A stretch of DNA of 64,000 nucleotides from Escherichia coli (lineage in GTDB: Bacteria > Pseudomonadota > Gammaproteobacteria > Enterobacterales > Enterobacteriaceae): the NCBI RefSeq assembly GCF_003334305.1, contig NZ_QOWS01000008.1; one strand, given 5' to 3'. Shown piece after piece: positions 33,740 through 40,799 of the stretch (position 1 is its first letter; every line of letters begins with the position of its first letter). A model generated the notes under the pieces. That model had not been told where the DNA came from and ran no database searches. It saw nothing but the letters and a program-made list of their open reading frames with translations. The translations under genes were made by a program, and so were the position numbers.

Positions 33740-33782
33740 TCCCCTCACCCTAACCCTCTCCCCAAAGGGGCGAGGGGACCGT
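33740..33782. repeat. 43-bp palindromic interspersed repeat, copy 1
   Basis: tcccctcaccctaaccctctccccaaaggggcgaggggaccgt; imperfect hairpin ccctctcccc/ggggcgaggg; identical to the copy at 40757-40799. Confidence 0.85.
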
Positions 33783-33818
33783 TCAGTACGGAATTTAGCT
33801 TGACGGTGCTATCCAGCA

Positions 33819-34904
33819 TTAAATACTGGCAATACTCTCACGCAAAATCCGCAGCACCGTCTCTTCACCGCTGCGATTCGGGTTAATGCGAATCGCACAA
33901 TGTTTTGATTGTGGATTCGCCTGGCGAAACGTTCCGGAAAGGCGATAAAAGAGCGGCGGGATTTCATATTTCGACTCTGCACCCACCGGGTAAGGCAAGG
34001 CACCGCGCTTTTGCGCCTCTTCCAGCACTCTGGCGGCAATCGGCTGATGAAACTCGACAATCAACACCTTCGACTGCGCATTAGCAATCACCGCGCTTTT
34101 CACTTCCGGCACCGCACCACCGTTAAGCAAAGCCAGCAACCGTTCAGATACCCCTGCCTGCACCGCGTGCATCACTGGCGCAAACACCAGACCACGCAAT
34201 ACTTCCAGCGCCTGTGCGCCCTGGATCTGGCTACCGCCGGAGTAAAGCGTGGCGCGAATACGGTTGATAACATCAGCATCGCCGACCACTGCACCAACAC
34301 CCTCTGGCCCAAATAGCTTGAAGCAGGAAAATGTCGAGACATTCGCGCCGCATTCACAGCCGATTCGCGCCACCTTCATCACCGCATAGTTGTCATCGGT
34401 TAACGCTGGAACACCTGCCGCGCGCAACGTTGCCAGCACATCTGCCAGCACGTAGCTGTCCTGCGGCTGCTGGCGCGTATGCTGCACCAGCGCCGCATCC
34501 GGTTGTTGCTCGTCGACGACCTGCTTCAGTGCCGACAGGTCATTGAAATCAACAGTAATAAGCGTCAGCCCCATCTGCTCAATAATAACCCGTGTCGTCG
34601 GGTAAACAGGCGCGTCATGCACCAGAAGACGCTGCCCCGGTTTGAGCAAAGCCGCCAGCCCGGCGCGAATCGCGCCAGTCCCCGCGCCCTGCACCAGCGC
34701 CGCAGCCTGTGCGTGAAATGCATCAGCCAGCACCTGTTCCACACGCTGGGTAACGCGCGGTTGATTCAGTCCTGGCGTTAAGCCTAAATCACCGCCAGTA
34801 AGAAACTCGCTGCCGGGGAAATGGCGACAAATGCTATCCACCAGCGCAAACTGCTTTTGCTGCGCCTCAATAATCGTCAGGCTTTGCAGAGGAAACGTCT
34901 TCAT
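33819..34904 (-). CDS. yhfS: Putative PLP-dependent enzyme YhfS
   Basis: 361-aa ORF MKTFPLQSLTIIEAQQKQFALVDSICRHFPGSEFLTGGDLGLTPGLNQ...SCFKLFG (candidate PLP lysine). Confidence 0.88.
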   Translation of the reverse strand: MKTFPLQSLTIIEAQQKQFALVDSICRHFPGSEFLTGGDLGLTPGLNQPRVTQRVEQVLADAFHAQAAALVQGAGTGAIRAGLAALLKPGQRLLVHDAPVYPTTRVIIEQMGLTLITVDFNDLSALKQVVDEQQPDAALVQHTRQQPQDSYVLADVLATLRAAGVPALTDDNYAVMKVARIGCECGANVSTFSCFKLFGPEGVGAVVGDADVINRIRATLYSGGSQIQGAQALEVLRGLVFAPVMHAVQAGVSERLLALLNGGAVPEVKSAVIANAQSKVLIVEFHQPIAARVLEEAQKRGALPYPVGAESKYEIPPLFYRLSGTFRQANPQSKHCAIRINPNRSGEETVLRILRESIASI

Positions 34905-34915
34905 AGGTGCCTTCC

Positions 34916-36220
34916 TTAAGCCGGAACGAACAGGCCAAGCCAGTAAAGAACATTCAGCAGAATACCGGTGATCATTACTGCCACGACCGGTGCCGCCATT
35001 TTCTGTACCGGACGGCCCAGGGATTCGTTGAGGAAGTAAATGGCAACCGCGATAGAGAATCCGGTATAACCCGCCATCTTAATTGCTGCGAAAATCGAAC
35101 CGACCAGCAGCGCCACTTCCATCAGCATATTCATGGCGTTACGGATGTTATCCGACGCATTACGCACCGACGGGTAGCGTCCCAGCCATTTGCCGATCGA
35201 ACGAAGCAGCAAGACTTCCGCCGAAATAACCACTGCGCCTAATACCGCTGCAACCATCGGATTCGGCGAGAGATAGCCCACCGCATAAACAAAGGTAAAG
35301 CCCGCAACTGCATACACACCCGTTGCTAAGGCGGTGGTGGCAATCAACGGTACAAAACCCAGCCCGCGCATAAATTCTGCCAGTGCCGCCTGGTTGATCA
35401 GCGTTTGCGATTGTTCCGGCGTTACGCCTGCGGAGTACGCTTTCTCCAGAGTGAAGATCGACACTTCACTGCCGGCGAAAATCTTCATGCTGGCAACGGC
35501 GGCAATCAATGCTCCCACGATGGCGATATAGGGTAAGTTTTTGATAATCCGCGACGTGCGTTCTTCAAACACCGAAAGCCCGCTGGCATCAATATCATTT
35601 TCATCACGATGACGCAGGTCGTGAGTTATCGCGATCCCCAGCAGCATCACCATGCCAATAAAGATTTCGATGGATTCAGGGTTAAGATGTGGGAAATAGC
35701 GCACGACTACCACACGGGTCATCAGTACCACCACGGCGGCGATCAGACTTTGCTTCCAGCCAAACTGGTAGAAAATCGCCACCAGCGGGAACAGTGCAAA
35801 AGCTGAAACCACCGGCGAGCTTAATTCCCCCAGGCTACCTAATACATCCACCGGCAGCGCGGTCAGCAGCTGGTTTACTGGCAACAGGCAAGTAAGGATC
35901 AACACGCCCCAGATAGCGCCAAGACCAAACGCCATCAGGCTGTTTATCGCCAGGACGCCGAGGATATCGGTAGGAAGAAAGAGTAACCATGCGTTGAGCA
36001 GCCCGGTTTTCAGGGTAAAAGAGATCCCCACCGAGGCCACAAAACCAATGCTCAGACCAAAAGCGATACTCCCCGCCTCGCGACGGTTCATATAGCCTTC
36101 AATCAGTTGCGGCAGGATCGGGCGGATGCCGTCATGAAAAACAGCCGCCGAGCGATGCGCCAGAAGCGATGTCATACCCGTCAGGCACGCCACCACGATA
36201 ATCTGAATATACAGATCCAT
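34916..36220 (-). CDS. yhfT: Inner membrane protein YhfT
   Basis: 434-aa highly hydrophobic ORF MDLYIQIIVVACLTGMTSLLAHRSAAVFHDGIRPILPQLIEGYMNRREAGSIAFGLSIGF... Confidence 0.88.
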   Translation of the reverse strand: MDLYIQIIVVACLTGMTSLLAHRSAAVFHDGIRPILPQLIEGYMNRREAGSIAFGLSIGFVASVGISFTLKTGLLNAWLLFLPTDILGVLAINSLMAFGLGAIWGVLILTCLLPVNQLLTALPVDVLGSLGELSSPVVSAFALFPLVAIFYQFGWKQSLIAAVVVLMTRVVVVRYFPHLNPESIEIFIGMVMLLGIAITHDLRHRDENDIDASGLSVFEERTSRIIKNLPYIAIVGALIAAVASMKIFAGSEVSIFTLEKAYSAGVTPEQSQTLINQAALAEFMRGLGFVPLIATTALATGVYAVAGFTFVYAVGYLSPNPMVAAVLGAVVISAEVLLLRSIGKWLGRYPSVRNASDNIRNAMNMLMEVALLVGSIFAAIKMAGYTGFSIAVAIYFLNESLGRPVQKMAAPVVAVMITGILLNVLYWLGLFVPA

Positions 36221-36231
36221 AGTCGTGCCTT

Positions 36232-39178: not shown

Positions 39179-39261
39179 CTTGTTGCCTCGTTTCTGTTCC
39201 TTGAATTAAATATTCATTTTTTTGAATATTTAGGTTGTGCGACGTGGATTTGTCAGGAGCT

Positions 39262-39624
39262 TCAAACCTCTTCGTTAGCAGCCATCCATAATCCATAAAG
39301 GTTGGCCAGCAAATAGCCTTCTTCACACGGGTTAACTTCCAGTGCGAATTCCTTCAACAACACCTGATGCAATTGCACAACGGCTTGCCAGTGGCTGGAT
39401 TGCGCCAGCTCTGCCAGCAATTCGTTATCCAGCGGCTCTATTTCTTCACCACGGCGACTGCGCATCAGTGCACTCGCCATATGTGTCATCGCCATCGTTC
39501 CTTGCTCACTGCGCACCGGCAGATGGCACTCTGTTTCCAGTACGTTGACGACCTGCATCATGCCTTTGCAGATGTCCTTATCAATAACGCCTGCCTCGCA
39601 AAGCAGGTTGAGTCTGGTTTCCAT
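39262..39624 (-). CDS. yhfY: PRD-domain protein YhfY
   Basis: Conserved 120-aa form starting METRLNLLCEAGVIDKDICKGMMQVVNVLETECHLPVRSEQG...; the ORF track extends 14 codons further upstream. Confidence 0.8.
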   Translation of the reverse strand: METRLNLLCEAGVIDKDICKGMMQVVNVLETECHLPVRSEQGTMAMTHMASALMRSRRGEEIEPLDNELLAELAQSSHWQAVVQLHQVLLKEFALEVNPCEEGYLLANLYGLWMAANEEV

Positions 39625-39640
39625 ATCAGATGCCTTTCGT

Positions 39641-40546
39641 TTAATAACTCGGTTCCTGTTCCCCACTCACTACCCGTTGTTGATGGGCGAGCAGGGCGTG
39701 TTTATCTACAACGGCACGCAGCAGTTGTTGCATTGGGTAATCATCGACTCGCGTCAGGACCACGGCTTCGGTGGCCTGTAAAAATCGCGGATCGTCTGTG
39801 AGCGGCGTCGCCTCTAATCCCAGCATGGTCAGTTCGTTTTCCGCCACCACGTTCCAGATCACCGCATCGACATCGCCTTTAACAATGCGTTGTAAACTCT
39901 CGTGATAAGAGAGATCGACTCGTTCCACATCACTACCGCCAAAAAAAACATCGGTCATGATTTTCTGATCCGCCGAACGGTTATCCAGCCCCACGCGCTT
40001 CACGTTTGCGGACTCGCCTTTACGGCAAATCAACTGGTGCTCGCCAACGTAGGTGTGCGGCCCCAACTCCAGCGCGAGGCATAACCCTTTTTGCGTGAGA
40101 TAACTTTCCGCCGCCAGTCGGGAAACCACCGCCATGTCATACACGCCGTTAAGTAAACACTCCACGCGAATATCCGCGCCGCGCATATGCGCATAGTAAA
40201 AAGGAATGCCATCAAACTGAGCTTTCAGCCCGCTCGCTAAACCTTCGTACAAGCGGGTATAGGGCAAAGGCATCGCACATACCACGTTGTTGATATCCAC
40301 ATGACTCAGCAATGCTTTGTTATCCATCTCGACCAGATAACTGCCATTGCGCCCACGGCGTTCAATCCGTATCGCTCCGCTTGATTCCAGCGTTTTCAAC
40401 GCGGCCTGCGTCAGGCCAACCGATGAACGGCATTCAGTTGCCAGCTCATCTATGGTTTTCAACCTATTACCGCATTTTTCACCCAACAAATAACGGGCCA
40501 GCGTCGTGATAACGACGCCTTCTTTTTTGATAAACGTTCGACGCAT
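39641..40546 (-). CDS. yhfZ: Putative HTH transcriptional regulator YhfZ
   Basis: 301-aa ORF MRRTFIKKEGVVITTLARYLLGEKCGNRLKTIDELATECRSSVGLTQAALKTLESSGAIRIERRGRNGSYL... Confidence 0.85.
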   Translation of the reverse strand: MRRTFIKKEGVVITTLARYLLGEKCGNRLKTIDELATECRSSVGLTQAALKTLESSGAIRIERRGRNGSYLVEMDNKALLSHVDINNVVCAMPLPYTRLYEGLASGLKAQFDGIPFYYAHMRGADIRVECLLNGVYDMAVVSRLAAESYLTQKGLCLALELGPHTYVGEHQLICRKGESANVKRVGLDNRSADQKIMTDVFFGGSDVERVDLSYHESLQRIVKGDVDAVIWNVVAENELTMLGLEATPLTDDPRFLQATEAVVLTRVDDYPMQQLLRAVVDKHALLAHQQRVVSGEQEPSY

Positions 40547-40756
40547 AATATATTTTCAATAAAATGAATGTTTATATCTTCATTAAAATGAAGATAAGTG
40601 GCAACTGTGAGATGTGGAAACGGCGAGGCGCTTCACATTTTTTCGGATTATTGCAAATGAGGATAAAAAAACCGGGTTTCCCCGGTTTCAGAGTGATGAC
40701 GAAGTGATTTATTCGACAATGCGAGCAAAGGGTAATTCCCACTGGCGCTTGCCTGC

Positions 40757-40799
40757 TCCCCTCACCCTAACCCTCTCCCCAAAGGGGCGAGGGGACCGT
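40757..40799. repeat. 43-bp palindromic interspersed repeat, copy 2 (identical to 33740-33782)
   Basis: tcccctcaccctaaccctctccccaaaggggcgaggggaccgt, same orientation, just downstream of the trpS stop. Confidence 0.85.

Follow-up and report, generated by a model that had tools for sequence, protein, structure and literature searches.

Recurrent loss of the yhfS-yhfZ cluster in Escherichia coli, probably by recombination between two directly repeated BoxC elements

We analysed a 64-kb stretch of Escherichia coli DNA (RefSeq assembly GCF_003334305.1, contig NZ_QOWS01000008.1; hereafter referred to as the window), in which two identical 43-bp repeats stand on either side of the yhfS-yhfZ gene cluster, between frlR and trpS. 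By their sequence, these repeats are members of the BoxC family, of type A with one mismatch; the family later received the names PIT and TMECO. Very probably, a pair of BoxC elements located at unrelated sites brackets an ancestral gene cluster by chance, and recombination between the two copies has removed this cluster on at least three occasions. The observations behind this conclusion are the family identity of the repeats, the distribution of the alleles among E. coli strains, the hybrid junctions left in strains that lack the cluster, the different flanking backgrounds of these junctions, and the existence of intact relatives of the parental type that retain both copies.

The initial annotation of the window had reported a 43-bp repeat occurring twice in the same orientation, and both of its positions proved right, with no mismatch between the copies. 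The 43-mer, TCCCCTCACCCTAACCCTCTCCCCAAAGGGGCGAGGGGACCGT, has two exact copies in the window, both on the + strand and 7017 bp apart; no third site with up to three mismatches was found within the window, and none of 100 shuffled sequences gave a match. A repeat finder placed the end of the identity at exactly 43 nt, and the sequences flanking the two copies are unrelated. The window is 100% identical to E. coli strain A7, isolated from orangutan faeces, whose RefSeq annotation we used for the genes. It is not K-12, as MG1655 has copy 1 alone and a complete php. Both copies are intergenic according to the open reading frames (ORFs) and to this annotation. The features concerned are as follows.

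33740–33782, + strand (the C-rich strand lies on +): BoxC/TMECO copy 1, an exact match, between the convergent genes frlR and yhfS.
40757–40799, + strand: BoxC/TMECO copy 2, an exact match, in the yhfZ-trpS spacer, past the trpS stop codon and before the terminator of trpS.
33819–40546, − strand: the cluster yhfS, yhfT, yhfU, php remnant, yhfW, yhfX, yhfY and yhfZ, from the ORFs and the RefSeq annotation of the identical strain A7.
33670–33705, no strand assigned: a REP element, belonging to a separate repeat family, directly left of copy 1, read from the sequence.

The repeats had been said to delimit the eight genes yhfS-yhfZ. Their positions agree with this, but the block holds seven intact genes plus a remnant of php. 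The repeat had also been described as a palindromic, hairpin-forming unit. Imperfect hairpins are indeed predicted for the 43-mer (−27 to −32 kcal/mol, with z-scores of −1.8 to −3.5), but it is a three-block unit, two blocks being C-rich and one G-rich, that can adopt alternative imperfect hairpins, and not a simple palindrome. Its distinction from the neighbouring REP held up: the REP consensus stem-loop (of the GCCGGATG...CATCCGGC type) is absent from the 43-mer and present at 33670–33705, which we take to be a REP element from general knowledge of the consensus. A short inverted repeat, CCGTAC...GTACGG, flanks copy 1. For neither copy could we define a clean empty site with a target duplication, the trait of insertions of miniature inverted-repeat transposable elements (MITEs). 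An Rfam scan of positions 33000–41500 at a permissive threshold placed no family on BoxC; it returned only naRNA4, on the REP, and Antizyme_FSE, the latter a chance match (E = 0.99). The REP-derived naRNA4 match, at 33673–33732, stayed below threshold (31.7 bits against a gathering score of 59.5) and is consistent with a single REP rather than a REP325-type array encoding naRNA4.

The assignment to BoxC follows from direct comparison with the published family. On the − strand, both copies fit the TMECO pattern 5′-CCCTCNCCC-N3-6-GGGNGAGGG-N3-GGGNGAGGG-3′ (PMC4666352), at 33742–33776 and 40759–40793, and no shuffled sequence matched it. In reverse complement, the 43-mer includes CCCTCGCCCCTTTGGGGAGAGGGTTAGGGTGAGGGG, which Table 1 of the same study gives for its entries 7, 11 and 15 as ‘type A mm’ (PMC4666352); this subtype has TTA as its second loop and one stem mismatch, and the identical core spans 36 nt. 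Copy 1 is TMECO no. 15 of Holder et al. 2015 (PMC4666352), located at 3504857–3504892 of the MG1655 genome between frlR and yhfS, and its whole 43-mer is identical to MG1655 3504856–3504898.

A genome-wide count, which the initial annotation had proposed, found the repeat to be dispersed rather than specific to this locus. In a blastn search with the 43-mer, none of the 5426 complete E. coli genomes lacked the BoxC family; the number of places per genome had a median of 19 and did not exceed 35. Perfect 43/43 copies occurred in 3704 genomes, at up to five loci each, and aaeR-tldD and yihS-yihR are examples of unrelated sites with an exact 43-mer. When six loci were aligned, the invariant family core came to 41–42 nt, which is essentially the 43-mer itself; the identity of the two window copies is thus a property of the family master sequence and not evidence of local duplication. 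Earlier literature on BoxC, or PIT, is said to include work by Bergler (1992), by Bachellier (1990s) and by Hoyne and Maher (2000). As for the possibility that the repeat occupies hundreds of unrelated sites that show no tie to variable regions, which the initial annotation held would speak against its reading, we found about 20–35 copies per genome, and an association of the family with variable regions has been published (PMC4666352).

The repeats are linked to a deletion by the arrangement found in O157:H7. In these strains frlR, its REP and the left flank of copy 1 are followed by one 43-mer without mismatch, then by the flank to the right of copy 2 (CCGAGCGTTTTGATATTACGG) and by trpS, and the entire cluster is gone. 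This arrangement is exactly the product expected from recombination between two direct copies. The segment involved and the genes on its two sides are the following.

33783–40799, no strand assigned: the segment lost in deleted alleles, 7017 bp, made up of one repeat and everything between the copies, as defined by the junctions of O157, 7_33_46A and TUM9757.
32936–33667, + strand: frlR, last in the frlABCDR operon (strain-variable), from annotation; copy 1 marks the right edge of the operon.
40815–41819, − strand: trpS, the conserved right-hand neighbour, from the ORFs, annotation and synteny.

In strains with an intact php, the lost segment amounts to 7699 bp. We counted the deletion junction (...CCCGTACGT-BoxC-CCGAGCGTTTTG...) by means of junction-spanning queries with an E-value cut-off that solely full-length matches can pass. 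It was present in 341 of the 5426 genomes, including O157:H7 and O55:H7 (342 by a coverage criterion), and the 93-bp junction sequence was 100% identical in 337 of these 341 carriers. At least 80% of window positions 33000–42000 is present in 5059 genomes, and 341 of the remaining 367, which are without most of the region, carry the BoxC deletion junction. Cluster-free genomes therefore keep a single repeat copy between hybrid flanks, in the order frlR, one 43-mer, trpS, just as the initial annotation had anticipated. Its suggestion of excision by recombination between the repeats likewise agrees with the exact hybrid junctions, which occur in at least three flank backgrounds.

Strains differ in which of the two copies accompany the cluster. 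We found 2857 genomes with copy 1 between frlR and yhfS and 1525 with copy 2 between yhfZ and trpS, so that many strains hold the cluster with one copy or none. MG1655, for instance, has the cluster with copy 1 only, and REP/BIME in place of copy 2; EN-1077, which is without the frl operon, carries copy 2 alone; and G749, like strains of the phylogroup B2 type, has kept the cluster with neither copy. Both copies are present in at most 1525 genomes, and in about 1200 as estimated from a spread sample, roughly a quarter of E. coli. One of these strains is O26:H11 11368, in which the cluster is intact and the two exact copies lie 7699 bp apart. The presence of both copies in the same orientation in roughly a quarter of strains means that they happen to bracket the cluster in these strains.

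We estimated the number of deletion events from the sequences surrounding the junction, comparing 4.8 kb on its left and 5.5 kb on its right among eight carriers and intact strains. The bovine isolates 7_33_46A and F2_407_2_2 differ from the intact O26:H11 11368 by only two single-nucleotide polymorphisms (SNPs) in the 4.8 kb on the left and four in the 5.5 kb on the right, the nearest of which are 543 bp and 3062 bp from the junction. The deletion in these isolates is a recent one within an O26-like lineage, the parental state of which is preserved in 11368. TUM9757 has a K-12/A7-like left flank (6–8 SNPs) and a right flank that is unlike that of every other carrier from 49 bp onward; the flanks of TUM9757 and of O157:H7 EDL933 are different, starting 5–106 bp from the junction. 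The O157 type has left-flank SNPs of its own at 5, 22, 23, 41 and 64 bp from the junction, and an intact environmental isolate, 23S01245-7, combines exactly this left flank with the cluster and both BoxC copies (with two substitutions in copy 1 and one in copy 2). KV7, SCU-316, Z1322 and EC974 also have the O157-type proximal left flank, with 1.6% divergence further out; the pairs KV7/SCU-316 and Z1322/EC974 may represent further events or later exchange of flanks. These flank comparisons support at least three independent deletions with identical endpoints.

The contents of the cluster bear on how such deletions could be tolerated. In the window, php is truncated by a deletion of ~680 bp relative to O26:H11 11368, which removes the gene from codon 59 to its end together with the php-yhfU spacer. 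The resulting ORF, at 36232–36792 with the junction near 36617, encodes 186 amino acids, in which the first 58 residues of Php are fused to full-length YhfU, and it is annotated as a pseudogene in A7 by RefSeq; php is intact in MG1655. The short sequence GTAAC occurs near both breakpoints of this php deletion, offset between them. Besides php in A7, pseudogenes were noted for yhfS in 23S01245-7 (internal stop; locus L101) and for yhfX in EN-1077 (internal stop; locus L086), and frlD has an internal stop in EDL933 (locus L088). These sequences suggest relaxed selection on the yhf cluster and on the frl operon. The scattered php, yhfS and yhfX pseudogenes suggest that the cluster is dispensable, and its deletions could therefore persist.

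As to the mechanism, the 43 bp of perfect direct homology would allow recombination to remove the cluster together with one repeat, which would leave frlR, one BoxC and trpS. The most likely route would be a RecA-dependent intrachromosomal or unequal sister-chromatid crossover, with template switching during replication as the alternative. RecA/RecBCD-dependent exchange in E. coli needs a homology of at least ~23–27 bp. Homologous recombination seems most likely because the 43 bp exceeds this length and because the distance of 7–7.7 kb argues against simple replication slippage. Several points speak against our account. The pathway is one that we infer from the junction alone, and 43 bp is short for efficient RecA-dependent recombination. 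The reciprocal junction (...CTTGCCTGC-BoxC-TCAGTACGGAAT..., joining the left flank of copy 2 to the right flank of copy 1, as in a tandem duplication or an excised circle) was found in none of the 5426 genomes, so that there is no direct sign of a crossover beyond the deletion itself. Among the complete genomes, no intact one has the exact O157 flanks along with two perfect copies. Finally, exchange of flanks after one old deletion could inflate the number of O157-like events, only the O26-like and TUM9757 deletions being clearly separate.

BoxC might also be more than a passive stretch of homology. If it were an active instability element, its hairpin or triplex would stall replication forks or provoke breaks, and pairs of BoxC would be deleted at rates far above those of any other 43-bp repeat. 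At least three deletions with the same endpoints, together with the presence of the junction in nearly all of the genomes that lack the region, are what such an element would produce, and the published data point partly in this direction: a TMECO triplex forms in vitro, the sequence variability around TMECO sites is higher than around control sites, and TMECO 15 was scored as ‘region missing’ in 28 of 56 genomes (PMC4666352). Recombination between distant TMECO copies was raised there as no more than a possibility ‘in principle’ (PMC4666352). However, the triplex was stable only in single strands and appeared neither in duplex DNA nor in vivo, and according to earlier work cited in that study TMECO has no in vivo effect on replication (PMC4666352). 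Moreover, plain homology acting on a cluster that is dispensable, as its php, yhfS and yhfX pseudogenes suggest, could give the same pattern. We regard an active role of BoxC as unlikely. Were it true, direct pairs of BoxC would amount to pre-set ‘cut lines’ for shedding dispensable blocks of genes, of which the loss of yhfS-yhfZ from O157:H7 would be one case.

It is still less probable, and in our judgement very unlikely, that the deletion occurred a single time in the distant past and that the deleted allele was spread by homologous recombination, its apparent recurrence being an artefact. The near-uniformity of the 93-bp junction among carriers would fit such a history, as would the sharing of the O157-type proximal left flank by KV7, SCU-316, Z1322 and EC974 in spite of their outer divergence. 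However, 7_33_46A and F2_407_2_2 have another type of left flank and, across more than 10 kb, nearly match 11368. SNPs of the donor would have come along with an imported allele, and the distances of the nearest SNPs in these isolates weigh against a single spread deletion. TUM9757, in turn, is unlike both of the other types, from 49 bp on the right and from 5–106 bp on the left.

The origin of the cluster itself was assessed by a synteny scan based on yhfW homologues, with one genome per species. The cluster adjoins trpS in at least 25 enterobacterial species, and the order gph-trpS-yhfZ-yhfY-yhfX-yhfW-...-yhfT-yhfS is kept in Escherichia species (E. albertii among them), many Citrobacter, Klebsiella spallanzanii, Trabulsiella, Buttiauxella, Cedecea and others. 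At the edges of the cluster in other genera and species, neither the strict TMECO motif nor blastn of the 43-mer detected BoxC, except in Escherichia sp. E1V33, which has copy 2 with two mismatches. By this comparison yhfS-yhfZ is ancestral at its position adjoining trpS, and the BoxC copies came later, independently of each other. Since the cluster is ancestral next to trpS without BoxC flanks, the repeats are not the footprint of an acquisition. The initial annotation had instead read the block as a self-contained, horizontally acquired islet with the repeats as its integration footprint (attL/attR or a target duplication), an explanation that we find barely credible: the repeats do delimit the cluster exactly, and cluster-free genomes do keep one copy, a pattern that on its own cannot separate an empty integration site from a deletion, but it is contradicted by the synteny across genera without BoxC, by E. 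coli strains with one copy or none, by exact repeat copies at unrelated loci, by the nesting of cluster-free strains beside nearly identical intact strains, by the lack of any integrase, transposase or recombinase gene inside or beside the block (where the annotated genes are metabolic, transport or regulator genes), and by the GC content of 0.51–0.58 inside the cluster versus 0.50–0.57 outside, which shows no anomaly.

The sites of the two copies differ in character. Copy 1, preceded by the REP, lies at the right edge of the frl (fructoselysine) operon (window ~28700–33667), which is strain-variable as a whole. In G749, EN-1077, E. albertii, cryptic Escherichia and Citrobacter, yhfL directly abuts yhfS, with neither frl nor BoxC between them, and B2-type E. 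coli likewise have yhfL abutting yhfS. An apparent breakpoint at the left edge of copy 1 in some genomes proved to be an artefact, in that their copy 2 had matched copy 1 of the query; these are strains without the frl operon and copy 1. In Atlantibacter hermannii (locus L037, 318–8349), homologues of frlR and frlD are found in the trpS-yhfZ interval, so that they adjoin the opposite end of the yhf cluster from that in E. coli. More than one arrangement of frl genes has therefore come about at the yhf locus.

Copy 2 lies in the interval between the trpS stop codon and the trpS terminator, a position at which it would belong to the trpS 3′ untranslated region (UTR). Two further features define this site.

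40668–40689, − strand: the intrinsic terminator of the dam-rpe-gph-trpS transcript, from a terminator scan; it is conserved in all alleles of the spacer and forms the inner edge of the copy-2 cassette.
40700–40814, no strand assigned: the copy-2 cassette of ~115 bp (57 bp, BoxC copy 2 and 15 bp), from alignments; a REP/BIME cassette is there in MG1655.

The interval between the trpS stop codon and the terminator has three alleles: a short one of 162 bp in strain G749 (locus L087, 10412–10574), a REP/BIME allele of 290 bp in MG1655 (locus L001, 12495–12634), E. albertii and E. whittamii, and a BoxC allele of 269 bp in the window, EN-1077 and Escherichia sp. E1V33 (the BoxC of the last with its two mismatches). 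This stretch (window 40690–40814) resembles a small site within the 3′ UTR at which repeat elements are swapped. At fepB-entC and ygfF-gcvP, MG1655 has inverted BoxC pairs; the sequences flanking copy 2, at 40700–40756 and 40800–40814, are similar to the inter-box spacer and the outer flank of these pairs, and because of this resemblance the cassette may be one half of an inverted BoxC pair. The fepB-entC and ygfF-gcvP pairs (loci L003, 250–425, and L005, 165–325) carry short terminal inverted repeats, ATTCGACAAAGCGCACAAT / ATTGCGCTTATGCGAAT. These sequences suggest that copy 2 is one half of a larger, MITE-like composite.

At the yhfZ end of the cluster, AT-rich repeated or palindromic motifs (TATATTTTCAATAAAATGAA / TATATCTTCATTAAAATGAA) lie upstream of yhfZ at window positions 40549–40592, with a partner arm in the yhfX-yhfY spacer at 39207–39232. 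A ATCTTCATTTTAATGAAGATATAAATATTCA block upstream of yhfZ is conserved in Citrobacter and in other Escherichia. This block is a candidate operator for YhfZ, a regulator of the GntR type.

The BoxC element and its copy 1 were already known, and the recurrent deletion described here is a modest but concrete new example of what such elements can be associated with. Our literature search, which was incomplete in coverage, found no account of a deletion of yhfS-yhfZ by BoxC in O157, nor of the function of the cluster; a prior description is possible. The absence of yhfS-yhfZ from O157:H7 and O55:H7 is explained at the sequence level by one BoxC-BoxC deletion event. BoxC/TMECO has been known for 30 years and, to our knowledge, has no assigned function; the only proposal that we know of, genome instability, rests on statistics of variability. 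The locus offers a base-pair-resolved case for this proposal, with two direct copies 7–7.7 kb apart, and strains that carry both, such as O26:H11 11368 and A7, provide a natural test bed for whether BoxC recombines more readily than an ordinary repeat of 43 bp. The locus is also a caution for annotation: identical short repeats around a block of genes can be dispersed elements and not the borders of an island.

Compared with known systems, the element itself is no different from BoxC/PIT/TMECO as described, sharing the three-block pattern, the dispersed intergenic habit and the association with variable regions; what is added here is a direct-orientation pair whose recombination product recurs in nature. 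Like REP/BIME, BoxC is short, GC-rich, hairpin-forming, intergenic and multi-copy, but it has three blocks instead of a single stem-loop, is without the GTAG/GCCGGATG-type motif and has a copy number ~20 times lower; we know of no RAYT-type transposase for it. The yhfS-yhfZ locus resembles a genomic island with attachment-site (att) repeats, in that direct repeats bracket the block and ‘empty’ genomes keep one copy, but it has no integrase and no tRNA or dedicated att site, its block is ancestral, and its BoxC copies are dispersed elements that arrived later. A further parallel is with deletions between copies of insertion sequences (IS), rrn, Rhs or REP, in which an interval is precisely lost together with one repeat, recurrently and with the same endpoints; here, the homology involved is 43 bp instead of 0.7–5 kb, and BoxC can also fold into a hairpin or triplex, with or without an effect on the deletion.

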